Source: Candidatus Latescibacterota bacterium
GTDB taxonomy: Bacteria; Latescibacterota; UBA2968; GCA-2709665
Assembly: GCA_965219995.1 (NCBI GenBank)
Contig: CBDCOX010000002.1
Span: forward strand, 4,000,001 to 4,064,000
DNA: 64,000 nucleotides
Direction of reading: 5' to 3'
The notes under the pieces were generated by a model that was given only the letters and a program-made list of their open reading frames with translations, did no database searches and was not told the origin of the DNA. This document shows, piece by piece, positions 15,262-62,903 of this stretch. Position 1 is the stretch's first letter, and each line of letters starts with the position of its first letter. A program made the position numbers and the translations under genes.

Positions 15262-15294
15262 CGAAATGCCTCGATTTGTGGTTTCACCGTTTAG

Positions 15295-41215: not shown

Positions 41216-41529
41216 ATTTAGAATAGTCGCCGCTGGGCGCGGGGCCTGCTATATGCACAGCGCGAATCCCCTCACAGGATGCACAGGATCCTCTGCCCTG
41301 AGACTCTCGGAGGAACATCTAACCGCGTCACTGGACGGATAAGCGCGCTCTGCTCTGGTAGTCCTCCTGTCAGGAAGTACCTTTGTAGACCGATTGACCC
41401 CTGGATGATGAGGACACCAGTTCGCAATAAGCGGCCAGCTTGAAATGAAAATCAGCTCACGCGGTGACACTATCCGTATCGACAAACTCGCCGCGGGCAG
41501 AACAATCAACACATCGAGAATGCATAAGG

Positions 41530-44361
41530 ATGTACAGGGAAAACTATCGAATATTGAGTGCGTTGCGATGTCTGTTCGTCGCGGTGCTTTTCATTGCCGT
41601 CTCAACAAACGCCGAGGAGATCAATACCATGAAGACAGGAGAAGGTGCCAGTGCTCATGCCGGGGCCCGAATTTTTGCATTGGAAGGACAGGTCGTCCTG
41701 CAGGCGGAGGAAGCCGTCATAGACCCCGGTCGGACGGAAATTGTCATGCAAGGTTCGTTCGCCAGTGAGAAAGGCGTTGCGCTCAAGGCTGAAATGGCCA
41801 CCAGCGTGGGTTCGCCGGGGGCCGAACCGGATCTCGTATTCAAGGTGCGGGCGGCCAGGGCGGGGCGGTACGTGATTCGCACGCACGCGGCCACGGACGC
41901 CCGGGGAAGTGAGGCGATGCGCAAGGCCGGGAGCAAATTCGATTCGCTGTTCCTGGCGATCGCCGTGGACGACGGCCGCCCCACCCGGCGCGTGGTGTTC
42001 GTGCCGTGGAGCCGACCGGAGAGCTGTACGCAGAGTACCGGAAAGTTCGATCTCAACGGACGGGAGCAGGAGATCCGGATCTGGCTGCCTGCGGGCGTGC
42101 GCCTCGATTATCTGGAAGTCAGCCCGTACAGGCCGCCGGAAGTCCCATCGACGGCGGCCGACTATCAGCCGTCGGTCGTTCCGCCGGCGTCCCGGCCGCG
42201 TATCTGGGTGAACGAGCAGTCGCTGCCGTGGGTTCGGGCGAACCTGATGAAGGGTGAAAACACGCCGCTGTGGGCCCAGGTCAGGCAAACCGCGGCCGAA
42301 CCATTCGCATTCGAGGTCGAGCCGGGTACGGAAATCAGGTATAACGCGAAACTTGAAAAAGCGGCCGTCGCCAGGGCATTCGTCTACCTGATGACGGGTG
42401 AAGAGACGCCCGGCCGGGAAGCGGTGGCGCTGGTCCGCGACTATCTCGGCGCCGTGGAATTCGGAAATCTGCTCGACATTACCCGGGAAATCGGCCGCGC
42501 CATCTACTCGGCCGCACTCGTTTACGACTGGTGCTATGAACTGATGACACCGGAAGACCGGGAAAGCATCCGCGGCGACCTCATGCGTCTGGCCGACGAC
42601 ATGGAAATCGGCTGGCCGCCGTTCAAGCAGATCATCGTCAACGGCCACGGCAATGAGGCGCAGGTCAACCGCGACCTGCTCTGCATGGCCATTGCCATCT
42701 ACGACGAGGATCCGGTACCCTACCAATACTGTGCGTACCGCATCCTGGAAGAACTGGTGCCCATGCGCCGGTTCGAATACCAGTCTCCGCGCCACAACCA
42801 GGGCGTCAGTTACGGCCCGTACCGGTTCGCCTGGGATATGCACGCCGCCTGGCTGTTCTACCGCATGTCCGGCAAGCGGGTCTTCGACGACAACATCTCG
42901 GACGTCTGCAAGTTCTGGCTCTACATGCGCCTGCCGAACGAAGAGACCTTCCGGGACGGCGACGGATTCTCCGACGGCAGGCCCGCAAGCCTCGGAGCCA
43001 CGGCACTGCTCAGCTACGCCTACAGCAACGATCCCGTCCTCAAGCGCGATTTCGAGCGGCAGGGCGGCCTGCCTTCCGACCCGATTCTGGTGCTGCTGCT
43101 GAACGACCCGGACCTGGAGGCGGCGGAGAATTTCGATTCATTGCCGAGGACCCTGGATTTCGGTCCGGTCATCGGGTCCATGGTTGCCCGGACCGGCTGG
43201 AGTATGGGCTCGGGGGTGTCCGACGTGGTCGTGGAAATGAAGGGCGGGGGTTATCACTTCGGCAATCACCAGCATGCTGACGCGGGGAGTTACCAGATCT
43301 ACTACCGGGGGCTGCAGGCGGCGGATCTCGGGCAGTACCATTTCTATGGCACGCCCTACGACTTCAATTTCTGCAAACGTTCGATTTCTCACAGCATGAT
43401 GCTGGCTGTGGATCCGAATGAGAAGTTCCTTCGCGATACGGCCAATGACGGAGGCGCCCGGTTCATTCAATCCTGCCCCACCACGCCGGAGCAGGCCCGT
43501 ACGGATCCGACATTCGCCAACGGGGAGATTCTGTCGGCCGATTTCGGCCCGTCGCCGCAGCGGCCGTTCTACAGTTACTTCTCGGTGGACCTGACATCGG
43601 CATACAGCGATAAGATCGTTGACTACGTCCGGACCTTCTGCTTCCTGAACCTGGACAACTCAGAGAACCCCGCGGCGCTGATCGTGCTGGATAACATGAC
43701 GACTGCCAGACCGGAGTTCAGGAAATACTGGCAGGTCAACACCCTCAACCCGCCCGAAAAGACGGCCGACGGCGTCATCCTGAGAAACAGCAGCGACGAC
43801 GTGACCGGCAAGGTCGTGCTCCGAATGCTGCGGCCGAAGGCGGGCGAGCGGAACCTGCAGGTCCTGAGCGGCAAGGACGCAAACAGCGTGTTCGGACAGT
43901 TCTTCACGCCGCCGAAACCGGACCGGCCGGAGGCGAACGGCCATCGCGTGATGTTCTCCCGAGCCAGCGAGCAGGAAAACGACGTGTTTCTGACGGTGAT
44001 GTCGATGTCTGACGAACGCGCGCCCGATGTGCCGGTCGATCTTGTGGAACTCCCTGACGCCTTTGTTTTGACGCTTGCCGACCGGGTCGTGGTCCTGAGC
44101 AGGTCCGGCAAGCTGCTCAGGCAGACGCTGCAGGTGAACGTGGGGGAGGATGGGAACTTCCAATTACTGGTGGCGGGCCTGGCTCCGGGCGCGTGGAGTA
44201 TCAGCGACCGGGACGGCAGGGTCCGTTTCAACTCGCGTGTCGACGCAAACAGAAACACCGCCTTCTTCGTGGTTCCGGGCGGGGCATATACGGTTCAGCC
44301 CGAAGCCATCCCCGGCGCACCCGAGTTCCACGCCGCACAGGACTTCATGCCCGCCCGTTGA
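41530..44361 (+). CDS. Heparinase II-like (HepB-like) secreted polysaccharide lyase
   Basis: Signal peptide (...VSTNA); NGHGNEAQ, HNQGVSYGPYRF, RDGD, GNHQHADAGSYQIYYRG, DLGQY, SISHS. Confidence 0.85.
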   Translation: MYRENYRILSALRCLFVAVLFIAVSTNAEEINTMKTGEGASAHAGARIFALEGQVVLQAEEAVIDPGRTEIVMQGSFASEKGVALKAEMATSVGSPGAEPDLVFKVRAARAGRYVIRTHAATDARGSEAMRKAGSKFDSLFLAIAVDDGRPTRRVVFVPWSRPESCTQSTGKFDLNGREQEIRIWLPAGVRLDYLEVSPYRPPEVPSTAADYQPSVVPPASRPRIWVNEQSLPWVRANLMKGENTPLWAQVRQTAAEPFAFEVEPGTEIRYNAKLEKAAVARAFVYLMTGEETPGREAVALVRDYLGAVEFGNLLDITREIGRAIYSAALVYDWCYELMTPEDRESIRGDLMRLADDMEIGWPPFKQIIVNGHGNEAQVNRDLLCMAIAIYDEDPVPYQYCAYRILEELVPMRRFEYQSPRHNQGVSYGPYRFAWDMHAAWLFYRMSGKRVFDDNISDVCKFWLYMRLPNEETFRDGDGFSDGRPASLGATALLSYAYSNDPVLKRDFERQGGLPSDPILVLLLNDPDLEAAENFDSLPRTLDFGPVIGSMVARTGWSMGSGVSDVVVEMKGGGYHFGNHQHADAGSYQIYYRGLQAADLGQYHFYGTPYDFNFCKRSISHSMMLAVDPNEKFLRDTANDGGARFIQSCPTTPEQARTDPTFANGEILSADFGPSPQRPFYSYFSVDLTSAYSDKIVDYVRTFCFLNLDNSENPAALIVLDNMTTARPEFRKYWQVNTLNPPEKTADGVILRNSSDDVTGKVVLRMLRPKAGERNLQVLSGKDANSVFGQFFTPPKPDRPEANGHRVMFSRASEQENDVFLTVMSMSDERAPDVPVDLVELPDAFVLTLADRVVVLSRSGKLLRQTLQVNVGEDGNFQLLVAGLAPGAWSISDRDGRVRFNSRVDANRNTAFFVVPGGAYTVQPEAIPGAPEFHAAQDFMPAR

Positions 44362-47135: not shown

Positions 47136-47182
47136 CTGTCCTCCGGTGCGGAAAATCGCGGATTCCTGAAGTCCTCTGCATG

Positions 47183-47210
47183 TGTGACGACGAGATTGAC
47201 GGAAAAGTTC
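47183..47210 (-). promoter_or_regulatory. Putative autoregulatory ECF promoter GAACTT-N16-GTCACA
   Basis: Minus strand GAACTT TTCCGTCAATCTCGTC GTCACA, about 48 bp upstream of the ECF start. Confidence 0.55.
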
Positions 47211-47488
47211 TGTGGCGCTGTCAAAGACTCTGTATTTTTTTCGAAGTGAGTTAAACCGTTCGCATAACGGAATCCACGAAGCAGCCAGGATCACGGGTAT
47301 GTGTCAGGATACCGATTGACATCATAAGGGATTTTAATCATGGTTGGATCCGAGTTGCACCTTGCACATCGGTTCCGCGGGATTTCGATCTGCGTGAGCA
47401 CGCAATAGGTGGCGGCAATGACGTGTCTAACCTGCGAGACCTTCTTGGGATCCTGGCGGGGAGAATGCACGATAACAGGAGAACGTGA

Positions 47489-49348: not shown

Positions 49349-52300
49349 ATGGCATTTTCACCTGCGGTTCACGAGACGGATCTGGGGCAGGGGGTCTGCA
49401 TATCGGCGCCTGCGGGGGAATCCTACCAGGATGCGTCCGGTCGTTTGAAAGAGACCCTGGAGGGCGCGCTATCGGCGCCCGTGGACGTGCTTCCCGACGG
49501 GGAACTGGATGCCGGCGGCCGGCACGTGATTGCGCTCGGGAATATGATGGACAGCGCGTTCCTGAAAACGCTCTACTTCCGGGCTTACGACCTCACCGAC
49601 CGGGTGTGGCCGGGCCCCGGGGGATGGGTCGTACGCACGGTGCCTCATTCATTGGACGGTGTGTCTCAGGTCCTCGTGGCGGGCGTGAGCAGCGCGGAGG
49701 ACGCCGGCGAAGCGGCCGGCGCGCTTGCGGGCGCGATCGCGGAGAGTGGTCCAATCCTGCCGATTCAATACCAGGTCCATCCGGGAAGCTGGTCGGACCT
49801 GTACGTGACGCCGGCGAACGAGCTGATCGCAAAGAGCGAAAGGGACCTCGAGCAGGAATCCATCGGCGGGGGATCGGGCGACTGGACCTATATGATGGTT
49901 GTGGCCGATATGGGGATGCTCGCGGTGCAGACGGGAAACGAAGCGTTGATGTCAACGTTCTGCCGGCAGATCTGCCACTTTGCCCGGACGCGCTGGTTCG
50001 AGCGGACGCTGGAGGACCCGACGTTGATTCACGGCTTCATCCGGGTTCTTCTGCTGCCGTTCACGATCCTGGAAAACCATCCCGCGCTTTCCGCCTCACT
50101 CCGGGAGCAGACGCTGGAGGCGCTGCTGGGGCTCTTCAGGTCGGCGGAAGGGGCCGGCAATTCCGGGTTGCTGTCCTGCGTGGGCGTGGACAGGGTGCGC
50201 CAGAACCATCAGACCCGTTCCGCACTGGATATGTTCTACGGAGGCCGCTATTTCCACCAGGTGCATGGGCTCGCGGAGGGATTGGCGTGGATGAAGCTGG
50301 CGGAGGTCTTCTTTGCGCCGCAGATGGGATCGAACAAGCCCGTGTGCGACTCGTGGGGCCATCAGTGGGGGGCTTCGCTGTTCAACACCGCGGATTACGC
50401 GCTGGCGGCGGGGAAGACCGACTACTTTTCGAGCCAGGCCTATCTCGAGGGCGTGGACCGGGCGCTCGTCGCGCACAGCAACCTGGAGCGCGGCCCGGAA
50501 CAGTACTGCCGCATGGCCGCGGCGGTGACGGGCAACGACGAATACCTGCAGCTTTGTGAATCCATCGACGAAGAGGCTGTAGCGGAGCGGACCATTCGAG
50601 GGGCCGAAGAGCCTTTGCGGACCTGGGTGACGGGAAGGCGAGCGGCGGCGCCGGAACGGTTGGGACGCGTCGGCGTGGCCCCTCTCTCGCGGCTGTTCTA
50701 CGATTCGATCGAAGAATATACCACGTTTGCGCCGGAGAATGGCGTGTATCTGCGGAATCTGCCCTACGAACAGACGTTTGACAAGGTGTACTTCCGGTCC
50801 GGATGGACGGACCAGGACGACTACCTGCTGCTGGACGGGATCTCGGGTGGCTCGCACTCCTACCAGGACGGCAACTGCATCGTGCGTTATACCAGCCGGG
50901 GCGCGTCCTGGTTCAGGTTTGCCGGAGGCCACCAGCCGGCGACGGTTCGGGACTACACGGGCGTGAGCGTTTCGGTAGACGGCGCGGGGCCGGGCTGCGA
51001 ATCCAGGTATTCGGCGCTGCGGTATCTGCACGAAGGGGAGAACCTTGCCGTGGCCGGCACGTCGATGACCTATCCTGAGCAGGGCGACTGGTACCGGCAT
51101 ATCGTGTACAGCAGAGAGGGATGGTTTCTGGTGATCGACGAGATCTGGCCCGCCGTGGCGGGAGAATTTCTCGTGGAGTGCCGGTGGCACATTCTGGGCG
51201 ACACGACGCTGACAGACGGCCTGTTGCGGTCGGTTCAGGGAGACGCACAATTGAACATGCGCCACGCGGGGAGCGGGCGCAGGGAACTGGCGGCATCGGA
51301 CTACTGGTGCGCGGAAGACCACTCGCGGTGGATCCAGCGTTCCCTGGCGGCGCTTCGGCCGGGAACGGGGATCCGGTTCGGGACGCTTTTCTGGACCGAC
51401 GCGGTGGGAGATGGAAGGGATTTCAGCCTGGTCGAGGAGAAAAGCGGCTTCCGGATCGAGGGCGGCGGCGACAACGTCAGGATCGTCCTGGAGGAGGGGG
51501 AAGAGAACCCGGCTGTGACCGCCTCCGGCGCGACATTGCCAACAGCCGGTCGTCATGTCGTTGCGTCCGATTCCACGCCATTTCGAACTGTTGGCGGGGA
51601 TGCGAAGCCTGAATGGAGTACGCGGTGTGCGGATGTCGTGACCGCGCTGGATATCGGGTCGGAGAGATGGTTCGGCGGCGACGGCGGCGGGGTGACCGCG
51701 TTCGATCCCGGCGGAGACGTACTCTGGAAGCGAGAGATCGAAGGCGGCGTCCGGGCGCTCGCGGCCCTGAATGACGGCGGTGCGGCGGCGGGCGGCGACG
51801 AGGAGACCGTACACCGGCTGGATGCATCCGGAGAAACCCTCTGGTCGGTTCGGATCCAGTGGCAGTCCATGAACTGGGATAGCTGGTCCAGGAAGAATTG
51901 TGTGGTTTTGAGTCTGGCCGCGGGCGATATCGACGGGGACGGACGGGAGGAGATCCTGGTGGGATGCGCGGACCGTCACGTGTATGCGTTTGATGGCGAG
52001 GGCAATCAATTATGGCGTTCCCCCTGCCAGTGGGGACCGCCGGTTTGCCTGGATACCGCCCGGCTGACGGACGGGCCGGGACGGCAGACGCTCGCCGGCC
52101 TCGCGGATCCCGCCATCCACGCGCACACCCTGGTCTTCGGCAGGGACGGGACGCTGGGGCGGCCGCTGCGGCGGCCGGATATCGTCAGCTGGTCGATTCC
52201 TTCGTGGTCCCGGTGCCTGAGGGTGGCGGACGTGGACGGCGACGGCGGTGACGAGGTGATCAGCGGGGTGGATACCAACCACAGGCAGTTGATTGTGTAC

Positions 52301-52663
52301 GGGCGCGGCGGCGAGGTGATCTGGGACGCGGACATGGGCGGCGGGGTGCTCGCGGCCGAAGCCTTTGACGGGCGGGTATACGCGGGGGCGTCGAACGGAT
52401 TCGTGCAGTGCTTCGACGCCGGGGGTGCGCGTCTGTGGAGCCGGTTTCTGACCGAACGGGTGGCCGGTCTCGCGCCAGGTGGAGATGGAGGCTGTCTGGC
52501 GGCCCTTCGAGGCGGAACCGTCGTGGGTCTGGACGGAAACGGAGAGGTCCGGAAGGCGCACTCCGGAAACCCGGAGATTGCGGTAACGGACTGGGCGTCG
52601 GGATGGCCGGACGGGGGCCTGCTGGTGGGCCGGAAGGATGGGACCATCGAATTCTACCGGTAG
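49349..52663 (+). CDS. Large multidomain heparinase II/III-like + beta-propeller protein, paralogue 4 (array copy A)
   Basis: GAGGAGG RBS; DRVWPGPGGW, RQNHQT, KPVCDSWGHQW, GGSHSYQDGN, DIDGDG. Confidence 0.82.
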   Translation: MAFSPAVHETDLGQGVCISAPAGESYQDASGRLKETLEGALSAPVDVLPDGELDAGGRHVIALGNMMDSAFLKTLYFRAYDLTDRVWPGPGGWVVRTVPHSLDGVSQVLVAGVSSAEDAGEAAGALAGAIAESGPILPIQYQVHPGSWSDLYVTPANELIAKSERDLEQESIGGGSGDWTYMMVVADMGMLAVQTGNEALMSTFCRQICHFARTRWFERTLEDPTLIHGFIRVLLLPFTILENHPALSASLREQTLEALLGLFRSAEGAGNSGLLSCVGVDRVRQNHQTRSALDMFYGGRYFHQVHGLAEGLAWMKLAEVFFAPQMGSNKPVCDSWGHQWGASLFNTADYALAAGKTDYFSSQAYLEGVDRALVAHSNLERGPEQYCRMAAAVTGNDEYLQLCESIDEEAVAERTIRGAEEPLRTWVTGRRAAAPERLGRVGVAPLSRLFYDSIEEYTTFAPENGVYLRNLPYEQTFDKVYFRSGWTDQDDYLLLDGISGGSHSYQDGNCIVRYTSRGASWFRFAGGHQPATVRDYTGVSVSVDGAGPGCESRYSALRYLHEGENLAVAGTSMTYPEQGDWYRHIVYSREGWFLVIDEIWPAVAGEFLVECRWHILGDTTLTDGLLRSVQGDAQLNMRHAGSGRRELAASDYWCAEDHSRWIQRSLAALRPGTGIRFGTLFWTDAVGDGRDFSLVEEKSGFRIEGGGDNVRIVLEEGEENPAVTASGATLPTAGRHVVASDSTPFRTVGGDAKPEWSTRCADVVTALDIGSERWFGGDGGGVTAFDPGGDVLWKREIEGGVRALAALNDGGAAAGGDEETVHRLDASGETLWSVRIQWQSMNWDSWSRKNCVVLSLAAGDIDGDGREEILVGCADRHVYAFDGEGNQLWRSPCQWGPPVCLDTARLTDGPGRQTLAGLADPAIHAHTLVFGRDGTLGRPLRRPDIVSWSIPSWSRCLRVADVDGDGGDEVISGVDTNHRQLIVYGRGGEVIWDADMGGGVLAAEAFDGRVYAGASNGFVQCFDAGGARLWSRFLTERVAGLAPGGDGGCLAALRGGTVVGLDGNGEVRKAHSGNPEIAVTDWASGWPDGGLLVGRKDGTIEFYR

Positions 52664-52821
52664 GGGACGACATAGCGATTTGACACGAATCCGCCGGGTC
52701 GAAAGCACTATTGCGTTAATCGGGGTTTTATCCTGTCCATCCTGTTCATCCATGTGAATTCCCGCGTTATGACATAGAAGCTGCACACGGAGAAAGGATT
52801 GCGATATGAATTTCCGCAAAC
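52620..52821 (+). repeat. Direct repeat (gene end + 142-bp spacer + gene start), copy 1
   Basis: Near-identical to about 56068-56269; offset 3448 bp. Confidence 0.9.
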
Positions 52822-55800
52822 CGATCCACCAGACGGATCTCACATCGGGCGTCTGCATATCGGCGCCGGATGCCGAGCCGTATCGGGCGGCGGCGCAGCG
52901 TCTTCAATCTGCCCTGCGAGGCGCGGTTTCCGGCAGCGTGGAGATTATTCCCGACGCGCGGCTCGACGCGGGCAGACGCCACGTGATCGCGTTGGGAAAC
53001 ATGATGGACAGCGCGTTCCTGAGAACGCTGTATTTCCGGGCATACGATCTGACCGACAGGGTCTGGCCCGGACCCGGCGGGTGGGCGGTCCGCACAGCGC
53101 CGGATTCCCTGGAAGACGTGGGGCACGTGATTGTTGTTGGGGTGAGCGGCGCGGAGGACATTGTCGGGGCCGCGAATGCCCTCTGCAACGCGATCGAAGG
53201 CGCCGGTACCACGCTACCTTTCCAATACCGGGTACATCCGGGGAGGTGGTCGGATCTGTATCTGACGCCGGCGAGGGAACGGCTGGAGGCAGGCGATGCG
53301 GACCTGGAACGGGAATATACCAGCGGCGCCGGCGACTGGGACTATATGCACGCGATTGCAGACATCGGGATGCTGGCGGTACGGACCGGTCAGGAGGCGC
53401 TGATGGAGATGTTCTGCCGGCAGGTCTGCCATTTTGGACGTACGCGGTGGTTCGAGCGCCATCTGCCGGACCCGCCGCAGATCCACGGGTTCCTGAGGTC
53501 GATGCTGCTGCCGTTTACGATCCTGGAAAATCATCCGTCCATTCCTGCAACCCTGCGAGAGGAGACGCTGGAGGTCTTGCTGGAGCTGTACCGATCCGGG
53601 GAAGGGGCCGGGAACACCGGGTTTCTGAGCCACGTCGGCGTGAACAGGGTTCGGCAGAACCACCAGACCCGGTCGGCGCTGGACCTTTTCTATGGAGGAC
53701 GATATTTCCACCAGGTGCATGGTTTGGCCGAGGGAAGGGCATGGATGAAGCTGGCGGAGGTCTTCTTCGCGCCGCAGATGACGTCCAACAAACCGGTTTG
53801 CGACTCGTGGGGGCACCAGTGGACCGCGTCTCTCTTCAATACGGCGGATTATGCGCTGGCGTCGGGGAGACTGGAATACGTTTCGAGCAGACCGTTCCTG
53901 GAGGGCGTGGACCGGGCGCTGATTGCGCACAGCAACATGGAAGGGGGGCCGCAGCAGTACTTTATGATGGCCGCGGCGGCGACGGGGAACGATGAGTATC
54001 TGCACCTCTGCGGCGTATCCGACGAAGATGCCCTGGCGAAGAATGCCATAAGGGGACGGGAAGAGCCGCTTCGGGGGTGGGTGACAGGGCGACGCGCGCT
54101 GGCTCCGGAGAGGTTGGGAAGGGTGGGCGCGGCGCCGCTCTCGCGGCTGTTCTACGATTCGCTCGAGGGCTTCAGCGGTTTTGCGCCCGAGGGCGTGTAC
54201 CTGCGCGACGTGCCGTTCGAGCAGGCGTTCGACAAGATCTTCTTCCGCTCGGGCTGGACGGATGACGACGACTATTTGCTGTTGGATGGCATCTCGGGCG
54301 GGTCCCATTCGTATCAGGACGGCAACTGCATTGTGCGGTATACGGGGCGGGGAAGGAACTGGTTCGGAGATCGCGTGGGTCCGGCCTCGGTGCGCGACCA
54401 CAACGGAGTGAACATCGCAGTGGACGGGGCGGGCCCCGGACGTGAGTCCCGATACGCCGCATTGAAATACGTTGAGGAGGGTGCAGCGTTTTCGGTGGCG
54501 GGCACTTCGATGCGATATCCCGGTCAGGGCGACTGGTTTCGGCATATCGTATACGGCACGGCGGGGTGGTTTCTCGTGGTCGACGAGATTCGGGCGCGGG
54601 TGGCGGGAGAGTTCCTGGTTGAGGGCCGCTGGCACGTACTCGGGGAGGTGACGCTGTCCGACGGGGTCCTGAGTTCGGTTCAGGGGAATGCGACACTGAA
54701 TATGCGGCACGCGGGCAGCGCGTCGCAGGACCTGATGCGGGTAACCGCAGCCCTTGAAAAGGGTGGCATGCGATGGATCCAGCGCTCATTGAAGGCGCTT
54801 CAGCCGGGCGAAGGGGTGAGGTACGCGACACTTTTCTGGAGTGACAATGTGGAGCAGGCCCGGTCGTACGCGCTGGAACCGGAAGGGTCGGGCTATCGCA
54901 TCGAGGGGCAGGGCAGGTTGGTGACGGTCTCGTTCTCCAAGGACAACGAAGGCGTGAACCTGGAAGCCGATGCAGTCGTACTCCCAGCGGCCGGCCGCAT
55001 CGTCGAAACAACGGACCCGGGGCCGTTTGTAGTCACACAGGCCGAGTCGAAGCCGGTGTGGAGCGGGGCATGCGGCGGAAGGGTGGCGTCGGTCGATGCG
55101 GGGGAGGGGGGCTGCTTCGCGGGCGACGACAGAGGAGGCATCACGGCCTTCGACCTGAACGGCGGTATACGATGGACCCATTCGATATCGGGAGGCGTCC
55201 GGACGGTGCTGGCCCTTGCCGACGGCGGGGTCGTGGCCGGCGGGGAGGCAGAAGCCGTACACCGGCTGGACGGATCGGGCCGTGAGGTATGGTCCTGTCA
55301 ACTCGAGTGGCAGCCGATGAACTGGGACTACTGGACGTGGCTGAACTGTAAGGTCCTCAGCCTCGCGGCCGCCGATATCGACGGCGACGGTCGGGAGGAG
55401 ATTCTGGCCGGCTGCGCCGATCGTCACGTGTACGCGTTCGACGAGGGCGGCGCGTTGTTGTGGCGGTCCGCCTGCCAGTGGGGCCCGCCCACGTGCCTGG
55501 CGGTGGTGCGGTTGCCGGACGGGAAAAGCCGGCATGTGCTGGCGGGAATGGCGGACCCGTCGATTCATGGGTGCGTGCGGGTGTTCGATGCCGAAGGCGA
55601 GTGCGTGGAGACGCTGTCGCGACCGGATATCATGAGCTGGTCGATCCCCTCGTGGTCGAAATGCCTTCGGGCGGCGGACCTGAACGTGGACGGCCTCGAC
55701 GAGGTGATCAGCGGGGTGGATACGAATCACAGGCAGTTGATCGTGTACGGGCACGGCGGCGAGGTGATCTGGGATGCGGACATGGGCGGCGGGGTGCTCG

Positions 55801-56111
55801 CGGCGGAGGTCTGTGGCGGAAGGGTTTACGCAGGCGCGTCGAACGGATTCGTGCAGTGCTTCGACGCTGGCGGCAGGCGGTTATGGAGCAGCTTCCTGGC
55901 CGGACCGGTGGCCGGCCTGGCCCCAGATGGCGATGGAGGTTGTCTGGCGGCCTTGCGAACCGGAACGGTGGTCGTCCTGGACGGTTCCGGAGAGATACGG
56001 ACGACGCACCGCGGAAACTCGAACGTTACGGCGGCGGGCTGGTCCTCCGAGTGGCCGGACGGCGGGTTGCTGGTGGGCCGAAAGGATGGGGCCATCGAAT
56101 TCTACCGGTAG
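52806..56111 (+). CDS. Paralogue 5 (array copy B, mosaic of A-like and C-like segments)
   Basis: 1101 aa; same motifs as copies A and C. Confidence 0.82.
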   Translation: MNFRKPIHQTDLTSGVCISAPDAEPYRAAAQRLQSALRGAVSGSVEIIPDARLDAGRRHVIALGNMMDSAFLRTLYFRAYDLTDRVWPGPGGWAVRTAPDSLEDVGHVIVVGVSGAEDIVGAANALCNAIEGAGTTLPFQYRVHPGRWSDLYLTPARERLEAGDADLEREYTSGAGDWDYMHAIADIGMLAVRTGQEALMEMFCRQVCHFGRTRWFERHLPDPPQIHGFLRSMLLPFTILENHPSIPATLREETLEVLLELYRSGEGAGNTGFLSHVGVNRVRQNHQTRSALDLFYGGRYFHQVHGLAEGRAWMKLAEVFFAPQMTSNKPVCDSWGHQWTASLFNTADYALASGRLEYVSSRPFLEGVDRALIAHSNMEGGPQQYFMMAAAATGNDEYLHLCGVSDEDALAKNAIRGREEPLRGWVTGRRALAPERLGRVGAAPLSRLFYDSLEGFSGFAPEGVYLRDVPFEQAFDKIFFRSGWTDDDDYLLLDGISGGSHSYQDGNCIVRYTGRGRNWFGDRVGPASVRDHNGVNIAVDGAGPGRESRYAALKYVEEGAAFSVAGTSMRYPGQGDWFRHIVYGTAGWFLVVDEIRARVAGEFLVEGRWHVLGEVTLSDGVLSSVQGNATLNMRHAGSASQDLMRVTAALEKGGMRWIQRSLKALQPGEGVRYATLFWSDNVEQARSYALEPEGSGYRIEGQGRLVTVSFSKDNEGVNLEADAVVLPAAGRIVETTDPGPFVVTQAESKPVWSGACGGRVASVDAGEGGCFAGDDRGGITAFDLNGGIRWTHSISGGVRTVLALADGGVVAGGEAEAVHRLDGSGREVWSCQLEWQPMNWDYWTWLNCKVLSLAAADIDGDGREEILAGCADRHVYAFDEGGALLWRSACQWGPPTCLAVVRLPDGKSRHVLAGMADPSIHGCVRVFDAEGECVETLSRPDIMSWSIPSWSKCLRAADLNVDGLDEVISGVDTNHRQLIVYGHGGEVIWDADMGGGVLAAEVCGGRVYAGASNGFVQCFDAGGRRLWSSFLAGPVAGLAPDGDGGCLAALRTGTVVVLDGSGEIRTTHRGNSNVTAAGWSSEWPDGGLLVGRKDGAIEFYR

Positions 56112-56269
56112 GGGACGACATAGCGATTCGACACGAATCCGCCGGGTCGAAAGCACTATTGCGTTTATCGGGTTTTTATCCTGTCCATCCTGTTCATCCA
56201 TGTGAATTCTCGCTCTGTGACATAACAGTTGCACACGGAGAAAGGATTGCGATATGAACTTCCGCAAAG
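56068..56269 (+). repeat. Direct repeat (gene end + spacer + gene start), copy 2
   Basis: TAGGGGACGACATAGCGATT...ATCCTGTCCATCCTGTTCATCCATGTGAATTC...GCACACGGAGAAAGGATTGCGATATGAA. Confidence 0.9.
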
Positions 56270-59200
56270 CGATCCACGAAACGGATCTGTCTTCGGGCAT
56301 CTGCATATCCGCGCCGGATATCCAGCAATACCAGGAAGCGGCGCAGCGTCTTCAATCTGTCCTGGGAGGCGCGGTTTCCGGCAACGTGGAGATTTTGACG
56401 GACACGCGGCTCGACGCGGATGGACGCCACGTGATCGCGTTGGGAAACATGATGGACAGCGCGTTCTTGAAGACACTGTACTTCCGGGCATACGATCTGA
56501 CCGACAGGGTCTGGCCCGGTCCGGGCGGGTGGGCGGTCCGCACCGCGCCGGACTCCCTGGACAACGTAGGGCACGTGATCGTCGTTGGTGTGAGTGGCGC
56601 TGACGACGTTTCCGAGGCGGCGTATGCGCTTTCCCGTACGATTGAGTCCGAGGGCGCCACCCTCCCGTATCAGCAACGGGTGAAGCTCGGCAAGTGGGCG
56701 GACCTGTATCGGAAGCCGGCGCGTGATCGGCTGGACCAGGGGGACGAGGCTCTGGAGCGGGAGTTCACGAGCGGCCCCGGGGACTGGACCTACATGTGGG
56801 CCATCGCAGAGATCGGGATGCTGGCGATACAGACGGGCAGGGAGGATCTGATCCCGATGTTCTGCCGTCAGGTCTGTAACTTCGCGCGCACGCGGTGGTT
56901 CGAGCGCCACCTGCCGGACCCGCCGCAGATCCACGGATTTCTGAGGACCATGCTTCTGCCCTTCACCATTCTGGAGAATCATCCCGCCCTTTCCTGTAAC
57001 CAGCGACAGGAGACGCTGGAGGCATTCCTGGGGCTCTACAGGTCCACGGAGGGCGCCGGAAATTCCGGGTTTCTCAGCCACGTTGGGGTCGACCGCGTGC
57101 GGCAGAACCATCAGACGATGTCGGGGCTGGATCTGTATTATGGAGGACGGTATTTCCACCAGGTACACGGATTGGCCGAAGGGCGGGCGTGGATGAAACT
57201 CGCGGACGTGTTCTTCGCGCCTCAGATGGCGTCGAACAAGCCGGTCTGCGACTCATGGGGGCACCAGTGGGCGTTTTCGCTCTTCAATACCGCCGATTAT
57301 GCATTGGCTTCCGGAAAGATGGACTATTTTTCCAGCAAACCGTACCTGGAAGGCGTGGACCGGGCGCTGATCGCGCACAGCAATCTGGAAGGAGGGCCGC
57401 ATCAGTACATGCTGATGGCCGCGGCGGTCACGGGAAACGACGAATACCTCCGGCTTTGCGGGGCGTCGGATAGCGACGCCCTGGCGGAGAGGGCCGTGCG
57501 GCCGAACGTGGAGCCCTTCCGGACCTGGGTGACCGGACGCGACGCCGCAACGCCGGAGCGGATGGGCCGTGTGGGCGTTGCGCCGCTCTCGCGGCTGTTT
57601 TACGATTCCCTCGAGGATCTCGGTGGATTCGCGCCGGAGGGCGTGTACCTGCGTGACGTTCCATACGAACAGACGTTCGACAAGGTGTATTTCAGGTCCG
57701 GTTGGACGGATGACGACGACTATCTGCTTCTCTGCGGCATATCGGGCGGCTCCCATTCCTACCAGGACGGCAACTGCATCGTCCGGTATACCGGTCGCGG
57801 GCGGAACTGGTTCGGAGGGCGCGTGGGTCCGGCCTCGGTAAGGGATCACAACGGGGTCAGCATCGCGGTTGACGGCGCGGGGCCGGGTTGCGAGTCCCGG
57901 TACGCCGCCCTTCGATACCTGGAGGAGGGAGATGGCCTGTCCGCGGCCGGGACGTCGATGGGTTATCCCGGACAGGCGGACTGGTACCGGCATATCGTAC
58001 ACGGCAGGCAGGGGTGGTTTCTGGTTATCGACGAGGTCTGGGCGAAGGCGGAAGGCGAGTACCTGATCGAGTGCCGCTGGCACGTGTACGGAGACGTGGA
58101 AACGGTCGACGGCGGGATTCGTTCAGTCCAGGACGACGCGAAGCTGGAAATGCGGCATTCGGGAAGCGGATCCCGGGAGTTGATTCCGGTGACCTCGGCG
58201 CTGGCAAACGAAGGAACGCGGTGGGTGCAGCGCTCGCTGAAATCGCTTCGGGCCGGAGAAGGCGTGCGGTTCGCGACACTTTTCTGGAGTGACCAAGAGG
58301 CGCGGCCCCGGAATTACGCACTGGTACCGGAAGCGTCAGGTTACCGGATTGAAGGCGAGGGCGAGGCGTCCACGATTTCGCTTTCGGCAGGATGTGAGGA
58401 TGTCAACATCGAGGCTCAGGTGGCCGTACTTCCAACTACCGGTAACGCCGAGGATGCGTCGGACGCCGGGCCGTTCATTGCTTCGGGCGGAGACGCGAGG
58501 ACGGCCTGGCGCGGACAGTGTGGCTCGGCCGTGAAAACGGTGGACGTTTGGGCGGGAGGATGTTTCGCGGGTGACGAGAGCGGCGGCATCACGGCATTCG
58601 ACCGGAACGGCGGGAAACGGTGGACCCATTCCGTGTCAGGGAGAATCCGGACGGTCCTTGCCCTTGCCGACGGCGGGGTGGTGGCCGGCGGGGATGGCGA
58701 AGCCGTTCATCGGCTGGACGCGTCGGGCAGGGAAGTGTGGGCGTATCAGCTCGAGTGGCAGCCCATGAACTGGGACTACTGGACGTGGCTGAACTGCAAA
58801 GTCCTCAGCCTCGCGGCCGCCGATATCGACGGTGACGGCCGGGAGGAGATCCTGGCGGGTTGCGCGGATCGTCACGTGTACGTGTTCGACGAGGACGGCG
58901 CGCTGTTGTGGCGTTCGGCCTGCCAGTGGGGTCCCCCCACGTGCCTTGAGGTGGCGCGGCTGCGTGACGGGGAGAGCCGGCATGTGCTGGCGGGGATGGC
59001 GGACCCGTCGATTCACGGATGCGTGCGGGTGTTCGATTCCGACGGGGCGTGTGTGGAGACGCTGTCGCGGCCGGATATCATGAGCTGGTCGATCCCCTCG
59101 TGGTCGAAGTGCCTTCGGACGGGGGACCTGGACGGGGACGGCCTCGACGAGGTGATCAGCGGCGTGGATACGAATCACAGGCAGTTGATCGTCTATAGCG

Positions 59201-59547
59201 GGGACGGCGAGGTGATGTGGGATGCGGACGTCGGGGGTGCCGTGCTATCCATCGCGGTTGCCGGCGGGAGGGTGTACGCGGGTGCTTCGAATGGTTACGT
59301 ACAGTGTTTCGAGTCGGATGGCGTGCGGATGTGGTACCGGTTTCTGGCGGCGCCAGTGGTCGGCCTGTCGCCCCGGGGCGGCGGTGGATGCCTGGCGGCC
59401 CTGGGGGATGGACGAACTGCCGGACTGAATGGCAACGGCGGGATGGCGTGGGCCGGTGGCGGCACTGCGATCGCCGCGGCGGCGGCGTGGCTGGAGGGGG
59501 GGCTGCTGGTGGGCAGGCGGGACGGATCGGTGGAGTGCTTCGGATAG
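56254..59547 (+). CDS. Paralogue 6 (array copy C)
   Basis: 1097 aa; same motifs as copies A and B. Confidence 0.82.
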   Translation: MNFRKAIHETDLSSGICISAPDIQQYQEAAQRLQSVLGGAVSGNVEILTDTRLDADGRHVIALGNMMDSAFLKTLYFRAYDLTDRVWPGPGGWAVRTAPDSLDNVGHVIVVGVSGADDVSEAAYALSRTIESEGATLPYQQRVKLGKWADLYRKPARDRLDQGDEALEREFTSGPGDWTYMWAIAEIGMLAIQTGREDLIPMFCRQVCNFARTRWFERHLPDPPQIHGFLRTMLLPFTILENHPALSCNQRQETLEAFLGLYRSTEGAGNSGFLSHVGVDRVRQNHQTMSGLDLYYGGRYFHQVHGLAEGRAWMKLADVFFAPQMASNKPVCDSWGHQWAFSLFNTADYALASGKMDYFSSKPYLEGVDRALIAHSNLEGGPHQYMLMAAAVTGNDEYLRLCGASDSDALAERAVRPNVEPFRTWVTGRDAATPERMGRVGVAPLSRLFYDSLEDLGGFAPEGVYLRDVPYEQTFDKVYFRSGWTDDDDYLLLCGISGGSHSYQDGNCIVRYTGRGRNWFGGRVGPASVRDHNGVSIAVDGAGPGCESRYAALRYLEEGDGLSAAGTSMGYPGQADWYRHIVHGRQGWFLVIDEVWAKAEGEYLIECRWHVYGDVETVDGGIRSVQDDAKLEMRHSGSGSRELIPVTSALANEGTRWVQRSLKSLRAGEGVRFATLFWSDQEARPRNYALVPEASGYRIEGEGEASTISLSAGCEDVNIEAQVAVLPTTGNAEDASDAGPFIASGGDARTAWRGQCGSAVKTVDVWAGGCFAGDESGGITAFDRNGGKRWTHSVSGRIRTVLALADGGVVAGGDGEAVHRLDASGREVWAYQLEWQPMNWDYWTWLNCKVLSLAAADIDGDGREEILAGCADRHVYVFDEDGALLWRSACQWGPPTCLEVARLRDGESRHVLAGMADPSIHGCVRVFDSDGACVETLSRPDIMSWSIPSWSKCLRTGDLDGDGLDEVISGVDTNHRQLIVYSGDGEVMWDADVGGAVLSIAVAGGRVYAGASNGYVQCFESDGVRMWYRFLAAPVVGLSPRGGGGCLAALGDGRTAGLNGNGGMAWAGGGTAIAAAAAWLEGGLLVGRRDGSVECFG

Positions 59548-59579
59548 ATTGCGGCAGGACCTGGAAGGAGGGATCGGCG

Positions 59580-62500
59580 ATGAATATCGAACGGCCGCGC
59601 ACGCTCGAACCGGAAACCCCTTTGCGTACGCCAACGCAGGTGCTCGTGGCGGCGCCGCGGTCCGGACACGGCCGGGCGGCGGCGGAAGGCATCTGCCGGG
59701 CGTTGCGGGACCTGAGCGTTCGCGTCGAACTTCTGGATGATCCCACCGGCGACGTGATGACCGCGGCCAACGGTCCGGTGATCGTCGTCGGCAACCTGGC
59801 GGACAGCCGGTGCGTGCGCGAACTCTACTTCCGCTTGCTGTGCGCAACGGACCTGTGGTACCCGGGCCCTGGTGGTTATGAACTCCGCACGCTGTGCAAC
59901 CCGTTCGGGACGGGCAACAATATCATCCAGGTGGGATACAGCGACGCCGCCGGTGCCGTGAAGGGTACGGAGGCGTTTCTTTCCCGCCTGGACGACCCCA
60001 TTCCGCACCTGGCCGATCTCGAGGTCACCCGGCTTCCGATGTCGGCGCACGAGGCGGCGCAGGTCCGGGCGGAGCCGCTGCCGCCAACGGCGTGGCAGAT
60101 CGCGAATACGATGCAGGGAGACCAGAAAGGGTATCTCTACTATCTGACGGGAGACCCCGATCTCGGAGTGGAATACCGCCGGGCGTGGGAGGCCGTTGTC
60201 GAGAGCGGGTACGTAAAGTCGGAGAAAATCGTCCAGGCCCACCTGTACAGCCTCGGCCGCCTGCAGCCCTGGCGGCTGGTGGAACACATGGACCTGTTCA
60301 GCGAAGCGGAACGGCTCGATATCACCCGGTTCATCTACGGATGGGCGGAAAGCGAGGAGGGCTGGCGCCACGTCCAACGCTGTCCCCGCGTGGTGAGCAT
60401 GCACGTTCCAAGGCAGAACCACGAACTCATTCCCGCCCTGGCGTTGACGTACGCGGCCGGCTATTTCCGGATGTATTTCCCCGAACTGCCCGGACCGGAA
60501 CAGTGGGAGCAGGTCGCAAATCGAGCATATGCTCCCTACGGATCTTCCTGGAAGCCGCTGTGCGACGGGCTCTGCCACGGATGGTGGATGTCGCAGCCGG
60601 TGATGGTCGAGTACGGCCTGAACGATCCGGAACACGCATTCTTCGAGCAGGGCGGCGCCAGACAGGCCGCGGATGCGGCGCTGGCCGTGGTGAACAACGA
60701 GGGATGGCTTCCGTCGGCGGGTGACAGCGACCTGAACCGGCAGTTTCCCGGGCCGAGCCTGCGTACGGCGGCGGCCTGGTTCAATGACGGGCGGTACCGG
60801 TTCGTCCACGACCTCGCGCCCCCGGAACGTCGACTGGTCAGCCTGACGTCACTGCCGAGGGCATTCGACGCCGGCGTGGATCCGGTAGTGCCGGACGACA
60901 GGGTGGGCGTAACCGTCGTTCCGGTGGACCCGCTTCTGTACCACTCCTGGGAACGGGACCCCCAGGGTGCGCCGGGCGTGGTGACCACGCCCCCACCGGC
61001 GCCGATCGACCGGTGTTTCGACAAGCTCTCGGTGCGTACGGGATGGGAGCCCGACGATGACTTTCTCCTGATCGACGGACTTGGCGGCGGCAGCCACTCG
61101 TACGACGACGCGGGCGGCATTCTGGACTACGCGCGTCTGGGTCTCTCGCTGATCGTGCAGGAGGACAGCTTCGTACACTCCGCGCCCGAGCATATGTCGG
61201 CCGTTACGGTCGTCCGGGACGGTGAATTCGGGGAGATCCCGGGATTCGCGGTTCTGGAGGCGAACGAGACCGACGCCGATGGCAACGTTTATCTGCGGAT
61301 CCGGCTTAAGGACTACGCGGGCGCGGACTGGGTGAGGGAGGTCTACCTGAGCCCGGGGTGCTGCGTTGTTTTCAACGATACGGTTATTGCGAACCAGGCG
61401 GGAGACTTTGCGGTGGAAGCCCGCTTCCGATCCCCCGCGCGGCTGGTTCTTAACGGGAACGAGGCGCGTTGTGCGAGGCGGAGCCCCACCGCCGGGGACG
61501 TGACGTTCCGGATCCGGAGCCTGGGCGAGGCCGCTTCGCTGGCGGTGGAGGAAGATCCGGTCCATCTGCGGTACAAGAACGCGGTGGACCGGGAACTCTG
61601 GAAGGAGCGGTACCATACCGACGACGTCGTGCTTTCCACGTTTGTGGCGCGGCGCGCCCAGCGCCTGGAAGCCGGAGAGGGCGTGCGCCTCACCCACGTC
61701 GCGCAGGCGTGCGGACCGGGAGAAGCCACGGTCCGCTTTCTGGAGAAGAAAGGCGAGGTTTGCCTCGTGCAGGACGGGACCTCGCGGCGGCTGGAGACGC
61801 TGCCGGTGAGGACGCCCGCGGCCGGGAGATTGACGGGTGACGCTCGTTCGGAACCGGCCGATGCCGCGCTGGTTTTCACCGCCGGGGATCGCATCCGCGC
61901 AATCCGCCCGCTGGCGGACGGGTCTGTGGTCGTGGGCGCCGAAAGCGGCGGTGTCACCTTCCTCGATCCGGACGGGCGGCCGATCTGGTCGGCGGCGCTG
62001 GACGACCCCCTGTACGACATCGGCGCCGCGGAGGGAGAGGCGACGGTCCTGGCGGTCGGGCACGGCCCGAGCCGGTTGACGGGGCTCGATGTCGGAGGCC
62101 GGCAAATATGGCAGACGGACATCGAACGGGAGCCGTGCCCGTGGCCGTGGTGGGAACTGCCGACCCCGGCGCCCGTGCAGGTGGAGGGCGGCATACACGA
62201 GGGTTCGGCCTTCTTTGCCGTCGGGTGCGGGGACATACAGATCCGCGGCTTCGACGGCGAAGGCCGGGAGCGGTGGCGGCAGCGCTACAATGAAGGGGTG
62301 CCCGGGCGCATCCGGGTGGTGGACGTGGACGGGTGCGGCGGGCCGGAAATCGTCGCCGGGGGCGAAGTGCTCAGTGACACGTCCAAATGCCGTATCCTGG
62401 ACCCCAAGGGGAATTTTCTCGCCCACCTGGACGTGGAGGGATGGACGAGTATTCTGACGGCGCTGGCGTTCGCCGAATTCGAAGGACGCCGCGCCATCGG

Positions 62501-62903
62501 ATGCGGCGCAAATCGGGGCTGGAACCTGCACGTGTTCGAACACGGTGAGGGTGAGGGTTGGCATCGGCGCTGGAGGAAACGTCTGGGCGGTCGGGTTACG
62601 GGCATCCGTTTTCTCGGAACCGATCGTCGTGTGATCGCCGGTACCAGCCAGGGATTCCTTTTGGGTTACGATCCGGACGGGAATCCGGTCTGGCACCGTC
62701 TCTGCGAACAGGGCATCCGGCACCTGGCGCCGTTTGGAGACGAAACGCTCGTCATTGACGACACCGGGAATCTCAGTGCGGTGTGCGCGTCCGGGAACGG
62801 CCGGACGCTCGGCAGGATGCCGCGACCGTGCGCCATCGCGGAACCCTGCGGAGCAGGGGTGCTCCTGGCGTGCGGGCGCGAGATCTGGCGCATCGATGTT
62901 TGA
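59580..62903 (+). CDS. Paralogue 7 of the large lyase-like/beta-propeller family
   Basis: AAGGAGG RBS before ATG 59580; DLWYPGPGGYELRTLCNPFGTG, RQNHEL, KPLCDGLCHGWW, GGSHSYDDAG. Confidence 0.8.
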   Translation: MNIERPRTLEPETPLRTPTQVLVAAPRSGHGRAAAEGICRALRDLSVRVELLDDPTGDVMTAANGPVIVVGNLADSRCVRELYFRLLCATDLWYPGPGGYELRTLCNPFGTGNNIIQVGYSDAAGAVKGTEAFLSRLDDPIPHLADLEVTRLPMSAHEAAQVRAEPLPPTAWQIANTMQGDQKGYLYYLTGDPDLGVEYRRAWEAVVESGYVKSEKIVQAHLYSLGRLQPWRLVEHMDLFSEAERLDITRFIYGWAESEEGWRHVQRCPRVVSMHVPRQNHELIPALALTYAAGYFRMYFPELPGPEQWEQVANRAYAPYGSSWKPLCDGLCHGWWMSQPVMVEYGLNDPEHAFFEQGGARQAADAALAVVNNEGWLPSAGDSDLNRQFPGPSLRTAAAWFNDGRYRFVHDLAPPERRLVSLTSLPRAFDAGVDPVVPDDRVGVTVVPVDPLLYHSWERDPQGAPGVVTTPPPAPIDRCFDKLSVRTGWEPDDDFLLIDGLGGGSHSYDDAGGILDYARLGLSLIVQEDSFVHSAPEHMSAVTVVRDGEFGEIPGFAVLEANETDADGNVYLRIRLKDYAGADWVREVYLSPGCCVVFNDTVIANQAGDFAVEARFRSPARLVLNGNEARCARRSPTAGDVTFRIRSLGEAASLAVEEDPVHLRYKNAVDRELWKERYHTDDVVLSTFVARRAQRLEAGEGVRLTHVAQACGPGEATVRFLEKKGEVCLVQDGTSRRLETLPVRTPAAGRLTGDARSEPADAALVFTAGDRIRAIRPLADGSVVVGAESGGVTFLDPDGRPIWSAALDDPLYDIGAAEGEATVLAVGHGPSRLTGLDVGGRQIWQTDIEREPCPWPWWELPTPAPVQVEGGIHEGSAFFAVGCGDIQIRGFDGEGRERWRQRYNEGVPGRIRVVDVDGCGGPEIVAGGEVLSDTSKCRILDPKGNFLAHLDVEGWTSILTALAFAEFEGRRAIGCGANRGWNLHVFEHGEGEGWHRRWRKRLGGRVTGIRFLGTDRRVIAGTSQGFLLGYDPDGNPVWHRLCEQGIRHLAPFGDETLVIDDTGNLSAVCASGNGRTLGRMPRPCAIAEPCGAGVLLACGREIWRIDV

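Follow-up and report, generated by a model that had tools for sequence, protein, structure and literature searches.

Which reaction is carried out by a protein that has the fold of a polysaccharide lyase (PL) and no catalytic Tyr is the question raised by a 64,000-nucleotide stretch of DNA from Candidatus Latescibacterota bacterium (GenBank assembly GCA_965219995.1, contig CBDCOX010000002.1, positions 4,000,001 to 4,064,000 of the forward strand; hereafter the window, counted from its first letter). According to its list of open reading frames (ORFs), the window contains seven long paralogous genes (P1–P7), all on the + strand. An earlier note on this DNA had compared the encoded proteins to heparinase II-type lyases and had proposed that four of them replace the catalytic Tyr with His, gain a nearby Cys, and lose the second His of an HxH motif, with altered chemistry, possibly epimerization, as the outcome. 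We found that these four proteins, P4–P7, combine a known fold with an active site that is without the residue defining the known mechanism, in a family that has no name, and that they belong to one clade, here called His-type as distinct from the Tyr-type members. We hold this descriptive part (i.e., the fold, the clade, and the residues kept, lost, and gained) with high confidence, and the clade probably works by chemistry not yet described. To our knowledge, every characterized enzyme of this fold uses the same Tyr, in at least 11 PL families as well as in the human dermatan-sulfate epimerase.

P4–P7 form a tandem array that spans exactly positions 49349–62903. The four genes (lengths in amino acids, aa) and the key residues of P4 are as follows:

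P4, 49349..52663, + strand: 1104 aa, His-type; QNHQT at aa 285–289, KPVCDSWGHQW (containing His338), SHSYQD at aa 502–507
P5, 52806..56111, + strand: 1101 aa, His-type; IHGF, QNHQT, WGHQW, SHSYQD
P6, 56254..59547, + strand: 1097 aa, His-type; motifs as in P5
P7, 59580..62903, + strand: 1107 aa from the ATG at 59580 (the listed ORF opens at 59217), divergent His-type; QNHEL, KPLCDGLCHGWW, LCHGW (the Tyr position being Gly), SHSYDD(AG)
P4 His228, 50030..50032, + strand: invariant in the His-type clade; Asp is the commonest residue here in the Tyr-type (0.44)
P4 Asn286-His287, 50204..50209, + strand: putative carboxylate neutralizer pair, at the start of helix 286–306
P4 His338-Gln339, 50360..50365, + strand: Gln339 at the predicted position of the canonical catalytic Tyr, His338 the residue before it
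P4 His503-Ser-Tyr505-Gln-Asp507, 50855..50869, + strand: first His of HxHxD kept, metal-ligand His changed to Tyr

All motifs quoted in the earlier note were recovered in a MAFFT alignment of the seven paralogues and in a motif table, and the pattern recurs in relatives from other organisms, which argues that it did not arise by chance. P4–P6 share 66–67% identity among themselves and 21–26% with P7, P2, P3, and P1.

Fold and Domain Organization

P4 comprises a domain resembling the N-terminal domain of GH115 (aa 5–146), an (alpha/alpha) toroid with a beta-sandwich (approximately aa 150–735), and an FG-GAP/PQQ-type beta-propeller (approximately aa 750–1104). The family as a whole is large and consists of proteins of approximately 1,100–1,300 residues with this three-part build. 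An AlphaFold2 model of residues 1–750 was built from a 63-sequence alignment (predicted local distance difference test, pLDDT, 91.7; predicted template modeling score, pTM, 0.92). In Foldseek searches, this model matched HepIII (4MMI; E = 8e-19) and dermatan-sulfate epimerase 1 (DS-epi1; E = 3e-15), as well as PL15 Atu3025 (3A0O), the PL35 GAGases including GAGase II, exoHep, PL33, PL17 Alg17c, PL39, and HepII, with E values ranging from 8e-19 to 3.5e-12 across PL12, PL15, PL35, PL33, PL17, PL39, PL21, and DS-epi1. Superposition with VIA-align gave Z scores of 23.1 to Alg17c (4NEI; root-mean-square deviation, rmsd, 3.8 over 527 aligned residues), 22.9 to BT4657 (5JMD), 22.4 to both PL40 and PL15 3A0O, and 20.5 to DS-epi1 (6HZN), the overall range being 17–23 for the two-domain fold of a helical toroid followed by a beta-sandwich. 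By this model, P4 has the two-domain fold of the HepIII/PL15/PL17/PL21/DS-epimerase type, in agreement with the fold assignment of the earlier note, though the fold is invisible to Pfam and PDB sequence searches. This places P4 in the superfamily of uronate lyases and epimerases built from an (alpha/alpha)n toroid and an antiparallel beta-sandwich (PL8, 12, 15, 17, 21, 33, 35, 39, and 40 and DS-epimerase).

At E ≤ 0.01, no Pfam family matched the first 750–900 residues of the seven paralogues, and Hepar_II_III_C, Hepar_II_III_N, and DUF4962 gave no score even at E ≤ 10 for P1, P2, P3, P4, and P7. NCBIfam searches with the paralogues returned weak BamB-like propeller matches and none on the lyase-like part, while phmmer searches of the PDB returned propellers only and no lyase. 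A profile of 93 family members reached HepIII (4MMI) weakly, through the beta-sandwich part (E = 4.9e-4), and the ESM Atlas led to Hepar_II_III_C clusters with scores of 0.91–0.93.

Residues 5–146 of P4 superpose on the N-terminal domain of GH115 glucuronidase with Z scores of 16.1 to 4ZMH (139 aligned residues, rmsd 3.1) and 15.1 to 7PUG/7PXQ (VIA-align); this likeness of the model is one of fold only and implies no function. In the C-terminal third of P1–P6, the propeller families FG-GAP, FG-GAP_3, PQQ_2, or Beta-prop_CGLA scored above the Pfam threshold, and the PDB matches in the C-terminal part were designed propellers and BamB. P7 has no Pfam match at all, yet its propeller region aligns to those of the paralogues (MAFFT).

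Position of the Catalytic Residues

The background given in the earlier note, in which the Tyr and the first His of HxH are catalytic and the second His binds a metal, agrees with PMC12088678, PMC12915356, and PMC8006597. Its matching of QNH with the neutralizer His of PL15, and of SHSY with SHSH, was borne out by hhalign, which aligned Asn286-His287 of P4 with the Ser-His (His311) of PL15 and Ser-His503-Ser-Tyr505 with Ser-His-Ser-His (probability 38% against a single PL15 sequence and 91.5% against a PL15 profile). Asn286-His287 are located 52–53 residues ahead of position 339, within the spacing of an inner-helix neutralizer from the catalytic Tyr (approximately 52–57 residues; reference spacings from Table 4 of PMC12088678).

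Superposition on solved lyases, proposed as a check in the earlier note, was carried out with the P4 model and places no Tyr at the catalytic position of P4. For the register, residues 338–750 of P4 were folded (pLDDT 89.1), and the residue of each solved structure that pairs with model residue 1 (His338) was noted. In 14/14 enzymes with a documented Tyr number, this partner was the residue immediately before the catalytic Tyr, among them residue 293 in 4MMH (Tyr294), 257 in 4NEI (Tyr258), 238 in 6JP4 (Tyr239), 364 in 3A0O (Tyr365), 256 in 2FUQ (Tyr257), 245 in 8KHV (Tyr246), 240 in 8KHW (Tyr241), 389 in 6LJA (Tyr390), 260 in 6HZN (Tyr261), 290 in 8R6Z (Tyr291), 304 in 9VTK (Tyr305), 407 in 1OJO (Tyr408), and 252 in 2X03 (Tyr253); Tyr numbers were taken from Table 4 of PMC12088678, PMC12915356, PMC8006597, and PDB titles. 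In the superposition on Atu3025, H364-Y365-W366 coincides with H338-Q339-W340 of P4. Because His338 falls at the residue before the Tyr in all references, the P4 model places the catalytic-Tyr position, which in the known enzymes opens the second helix after that of the neutralizer, at Gln339 in P4–P6 and at Gly in P7, with His338 one residue earlier. Thus, the earlier claim that four paralogues replaced Tyr with His and lost the second His stands as far as the missing Tyr and the lost second His are concerned, but His338 itself precedes the Tyr position, which is occupied by Gln or Gly.

Sequence alignments offer another reading, in which His338 replaced the Tyr at the same position (TAY to CAY) and the enzyme catalyzes C5-epimerization or another non-lyase reaction. 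Both the MAFFT alignment of the seven paralogues and an hhalign comparison of the His clade with the Tyr clade (probability 100) match the Tyr of P2 to His338 and keep the following Gln-Trp; the His or Tyr lies 8 residues from Lys330 in both forms (110/123 His-type members and 62/68 of the Tyr-type members having the K-P motif); and Tyr and His codons are one base apart. An exchange or epimerase reaction would also need the leaving-group proton donor to be lost and the proton-abstracting parts to be kept. However, this pairing is at odds with the superposition, and it requires a one-residue gap inside a helix, four residues after the paired His338. From Lys330 to Leu352, P3 and P4 align free of gaps only with the Tyr of P3 at 339, and a gap-free count back from the invariant Tyr350/Leu352 likewise assigns position 339 to the Tyr of both P2 and P3 and position 338 to the His, in agreement with the superposition; we infer from these counts that the Tyr of P2 occupies position 339. 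With regard to epimerization, DS-epi1, the one epimerase of this fold that was considered, requires both Tyr261 and Tyr473 as well as a Mn site at His452 (PMC8006597), all of which are absent in P4–P7, and the epimerase suggestion of the earlier note gained no specific support. We consider the same-position replacement with non-lyase chemistry unlikely. Because Tyr and His codons differ by a single base, the Tyr could nevertheless have changed directly into the His, with a small insertion afterward, and the two residues may share an evolutionary origin.

The sequence alignments to PL15 were ambiguous around the Tyr and were set aside for locating it. In the hhalign comparisons of the family with PL15, by sequence and by profile, a gap of 4 to 13 residues fell on this region, and the comparison of the Tyr-type with PL15 (probability 97%) was unreliable at the Tyr.

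A Single His-Type Clade

When the N-terminal parts of all seven paralogues were used in an exhaustive profile search, the matches amounted to 1,559 representative clusters at E ≤ 1e-3, of which 926 were at E ≤ 1e-30. We typed 275 proteins, consisting of the seven paralogues, two earlier hit sets, and the best 150 of the 1,559 clusters, with proteins of fewer than 500 matched columns left out; 123 were His-type, 107 Tyr-type, 18 P1-type, and 27 other. In the unbiased set, i.e., the best 150 of the 1,559 clusters, 73 were Tyr-type, 39 His-type, 16 P1-type, 19 other, and three untyped. A FastTree phylogeny (LG+gamma, 833 columns, midpoint root) placed the His-type in a single clade of 129 leaves that includes P4–P7 (support 0.876) and is present in at least five phyla; the 44 His-type loci are found in records titled Latescibacterota, Gemmatimonadota, Verrucomicrobiota/Opitutaceae, Kiritimatiellia, Planctomycetota, and Armatimonadota.

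Six residues (His228, Asn286, His287, Arg483, His503, and Arg583) are present in 123/123 His-type members, and position 228 is His in 129/129 clade leaves. Glu267 was found in 117/123 members; Trp581 and Asp597 are also kept by the clade. Position 339 is occupied by Gln in 98 members, Gly in 24, and Ala in one, and position 505 by Tyr in 109, Phe in 12, His in one, and Pro in one (n = 123 for each). The Cys that the earlier note regarded as gained, at position 333, does not define the clade, as this position holds Cys in 97 of the 123 members, Glu in 24, Ser in one, and Gly in one; in the Tyr-type paralogues, it is occupied by Glu or Asp.

The combination of His338, His503, and Tyr or Phe at position 505 was found in 121/282 proteins, and that of His338 with HxH in only four of the 282. 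This co-occurrence could point to a relocated catalytic Tyr, with Tyr505 of HxY reaching the site from the beta-sandwich in place of the toroid Tyr; the HxH loop does border the active site in PL35, PL40, and DS-epi1 (PMC12088678, PMC12915356, and PMC8006597). However, the hydroxyl of Tyr505 appears dispensable, since 12/123 clade members carry Phe instead, and position 505 is that of the metal ligand, a position that in solved enzymes points toward the metal site. A single origin of the clade also accounts for the co-occurrence; since the tree groups the His-type in a single clade, the joint presence of His338 and HxY is best read as inherited once, rather than as repeated co-evolution. A relocated Tyr is, in our view, very improbable.

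Residues Lost and Gained

Residue frequencies of the Tyr-type clade were obtained from the 80 sequences remaining after a 70% identity filter. This clade keeps the second His (0.95), an Asp about 17–19 residues later (0.89), and a downstream His (0.97), as well as a Tyr approximately 24 residues past the first His (0.96), where DS-epi1 has its supporting Tyr473, and a toroid Asp-Asn pair (0.86 and 0.90). The His-type clade has lost the second Tyr, the toroid Asp-Asn pair, and the metal triad; HxH has become HxY/F, the metal Asp is variable, and the downstream His is reduced to 0.59. Of the residues used by the known enzymes, P4–P7 have the first His (His503); the catalytic Tyr is missing and so, judged by sequence, is the metal site. 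Relative to the Tyr-type, the His-type has gained the invariant His228 and Glu267. The losses of the second Tyr, the metal Asp, and the toroid Asp-Asn pair, along with these two gains, were not part of the earlier note. The pattern across the alignment indicates a coordinated rebuilding of the site and not a single swap.

The disappearance of the catalytic Tyr, the second Tyr, and the whole metal site would also fit lyase-derived pseudo-enzymes with a binding or scaffold role, perhaps presenting glycans to the other paralogues, as would the arrangement of all four genome copies in one tandem array beside other carbohydrate-related genes. The conservation described above speaks against such a loss of function; the six invariant residues are polar residues of the cleft and are kept across phyla, and fixation of new polar residues, here His338 and Glu267, would not usually be expected of a decaying site. 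In addition, some family members have a signal peptide and an N-terminal extension of approximately 200 residues (crude test), like secreted carbohydrate-active enzymes; the copies in the window begin at the first domain. We judge a pseudo-enzyme role to be distinctly unlikely.

Candidate Mechanism

The reading that we prefer for P4–P7 is that they are still lyases in which a histidine serves as proton donor. Because the Asn-His, His, and Arg set is retained, the substrate would still be a uronate-type sugar acid, held by Asn286 and His287; His503 would abstract the C5 proton, and His338, possibly together with His228, would give the leaving O4 the proton that normally comes from the Tyr. The outcome would be a Tyr-independent and metal-independent His/His beta-eliminase. 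A lyase with His as both acid and base is reported for PL24 (PMC12915356). As the copies in the window carry no signal peptide, P4–P7 may act in the cytoplasm on imported oligosaccharides. This mechanistic part is tentative, and we would place it below an even chance; the whole explanation, description and mechanism together, comes closer to that mark but stays just under it.

Several points weigh against the proposed mechanism. The pairing of Cα atoms at the residue before the Tyr in the model does not prove that the imidazole of His338 reaches O4, and His338 (123/129) is less strictly kept than His228, His287, and His503. In PL40 and PL39, His485 is the base and Tyr305 the acid, next to a His-Asp-His-Mn tetrad, and the second His, the toroid Asp, and Mn activate the base His (PMC12915356); this network is gone once the toroid Asp-Asn pair, the second His, and the metal are lost, and His503 may consequently lack competence as a base. 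Finally, the neighbors of 18 of the 44 His-type loci (the more distant ones; 146 flanking ORFs) were scanned, and no uronate pathway of the KduI/KduD type was found near the His-type genes in these 18 loci.

In broader terms, the His-type could be a new catalytic class in the PL fold, rebuilt around His228, His287, His338, and His503 plus Glu267 and operating without Tyr or structural metal, either by Tyr-independent beta-elimination or by a reaction new to the fold (sugar-acid hydration or hydrolysis, or C5 exchange). We regard such a class as possible, though on the doubtful side.

Other Paralogues and Lyase-Like Genes in the Window

The window also encodes three paralogues with other active-site configurations and two further lyase-like proteins:

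P1, 6345..10061, + strand: 1238 aa, third configuration; SRHGQ / LFWYNT / SRNAYH, with Arg at the place of the first His
P2, 10087..13791, + strand: 1234 aa, Tyr-type; QNHQT at aa 304–308, NAYQW at aa 355–359, NHGHDD at aa 525–530
P3, 28746..32618, + strand: 1290 aa, Tyr-type; QNHQS, TGYVW, SHSQED
Canonical PL15-type lyase, 26299..28704, + strand: phmmer match to 3A0O (E = 4.2e-84), Pfam DUF4962 and Hepar_II_III_C
Heparinase II (HepB)-like protein, 41464..44361, + strand: HepII_C; NCBIfam NF045571 at 424 bits, under the cut-off of 600

P2 has the full canonical set, consisting of QNH, the Tyr in NAYQW, H-G-H-D-D, the metal Asp and His, and the second Tyr. P3 has HxQ in place of HxH, a variant seen in four Tyr-type alignment rows, and retains the Asp and the His of the metal site. 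Judging from their sequences, we infer that P2 and P3 represent the ordinary Tyr/His/metal type within the same family. The P1 type, to which 18 of the 275 typed proteins belong, has Arg-His for Asn-His, F-W-Y at positions 338–340, and S-R-N-P/A-Y-H for HxHxD. P1 is located directly upstream of the Tyr-type P2, and a P1-type relative was also found at G000:C2:2183876-2188189. The PL15 gene served as the reference for the canonical motifs within the window; it and the HepB-like gene have signal-peptide-like N-termini, and P1–P7 do not.

Genome Setting

The 5.44-Mb genome encodes 13 full-length members of the family, nine of which are located between 3.98 and 4.08 Mb. P4–P7 are its only His-type copies; the genome has five further Tyr-type copies and one further P1-type copy. 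In the 18 distant loci, the recurring neighbors of the His-type genes include Gfo/Idh/MocA oxidoreductases (six loci), extracytoplasmic function (ECF) sigma factors (five), PhyH dioxygenases and metallo-beta-lactamase-fold proteins (four each), DUF2961 proteins, sulfatases, enolase-superfamily dehydratases, and M24 peptidases (three each), and DUF6785/DUF6784 membrane proteins (two); the same families are present in the window. The setting is one of carbohydrate catabolism, and it names neither a pathway nor a substrate.

Genes encoding PhyH-type Fe/2-oxoglutarate dioxygenases are located at 62939–63823 (+) and 22538–23308 (+). PhyH genes were found beside His-type genes in the window as well as in four of the 18 distant loci (L030, L038, L040, and L041), often with a divergent ECF sigma factor; the ECF sigma factor of the window (46545–47294) is accompanied by an anti-sigma factor (45845–46555). 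P1 and P2 are part of an apparent operon with genes encoding a 1396-aa FtsX-type permease with an M28-peptidase-like domain (90–4280) and a DUF6785/DUF6784 membrane protein (4331–6298). Genes for DUF6785/6784 proteins near family members were also found in L020 (14244–16319) and L028 (6788–8692); the permease and DUF6785/6784 genes may represent a dedicated transporter for the substrate of the family.

Two other gene arrangements were observed in the window. The product of an ORF at 14110–15471 (−) is a fusion in which an ECF-type sigma factor (Sigma70_r2/r4) is joined to a domain of the 3-keto-disaccharide hydrolase (DUF1080) type, and the ORF adjoins a DDE transposase (15312–16793, −). A multihaem cytochrome-like ORF at 36264–37502 (−), with Cytochrome_C554/C7 matches, is located beside a DUF4838 glycoside-hydrolase-like gene (34442–36262, −); the N-terminal domain of this latter gene shares the GH67/GH20b type with the first domain of the paralogues.

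The spacers between P4 and P5 (52664–52805) and between P5 and P6 (56112–56253) are 142 bases each and show eight differences, whereas the flanking proteins are 66–67% identical. A 28-base core of these spacers (52734–52761 and 56182–56209) has 44 copies in the genome at ≤4 mismatches, for which the chance estimate is far below one, and contigs of several runs break at this core. An Rfam search with the conserved spacer gave no match; the core looks like a dispersed intergenic repeat or a shared regulatory element. In one metatranscriptome run (share 0.07), contigs of 250–780 bases cover parts of P4–P7 and originate from a relative, being mostly 90–99% alike to P4–P7 with 1/35 at 99% or more; contigs from an RNA library are no proof of transcription.

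Novelty and Implications

Full-text literature searches, in a collection short of most subscription journals and CAZy, returned no description of the family or of a Tyr-less clade of the fold and no characterized member of the family, which does not prove that none exists. The family is also unseen by current annotation, with no Pfam, NCBIfam, or PDB sequence match on its catalytic part, and its carriers include marine and soil Latescibacterota, Gemmatimonadota, Planctomycetota, and Verrucomicrobiota. If our description holds, a clade that dropped both Tyr and metal and yet kept the carboxylate-binding residues would illustrate how far the chemistry of this fold can be rebuilt. Should the new catalytic class prove real, the surrounding family, with 1,559 clusters and three active-site configurations, would merit new CAZy families. 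A single genome with all three versions of the active site side by side makes a direct biochemical comparison practical.

Comparison with Known Systems

The best matches of the P4 338–750 model were HepIII enzymes of PL12 (4MMH/4MMI, 5JMF/5JMD, and 4FNV), with Z scores of 26.7–28.2 and rmsd of 2.8–3.1 over 314–317 aligned residues. HepIII shares the two-domain fold and an Asn neutralizer upstream of the Tyr helix and is the only lyase reached by sequence. However, it uses Tyr294 and His424 (Table 4 of PMC12088678), where P4–P7 have Gln or Gly at the Tyr position, and it is without the GH115-N-like domain and the C-terminal propeller of P4–P7. PL15 Atu3025 (3A0O/3AFL) and the PL15 protein of the window have the same fold, and their SHSH(G)D.N corresponds to SHSYQDGN of P4; in contrast to P4–P7, PL15 has the Tyr, and the PL15 protein of the window has a signal-peptide-like N-terminus and the DUF4962/Hepar_II_III_C domains, neither of which is found in the paralogues.

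PL17 Alg17c, PL39 Dp0100, and PL40 Uly1040 are alike in fold (Z 21–23), in the neutralizer Asn(-His), and in the first His, and P2 and P3 resemble this class; the His-type clade differs from it in having neither the Tyr nor the second His nor the conserved Asp-Asn. The Tyr/His/Asn sets of PL8, 12, 15, 17, 21, 23, 35, and 39 are compiled in Table 4 of PMC12088678, and the same source names His403, Asp405, Asp421, and His457 as the Mn ligands of GAGase II. DS-epi1, for which His205, Tyr261, and Tyr473 and a Mn site of His452, Glu470, and Asn481 are described in PMC8006597, also has the same fold (6HZN; Z 20.5 for the full model and 20.3 for the fragment), and the fold can thus perform C5 chemistry without chain cleavage. 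P4–P7 differ from DS-epi1 and do not classify as DS-epimerase-type, as Tyr261 corresponds to Gln339 in P4 and neither the second Tyr nor the metal His is present.

PL24 ulvan lyases have a beta-propeller fold. They belong to an unrelated family with no homology to the toroid domain, and their use of His in both proton-transfer roles, as described in PMC12915356, offers an analogy of mechanism only for the His/His chemistry that P4–P7 may perform.

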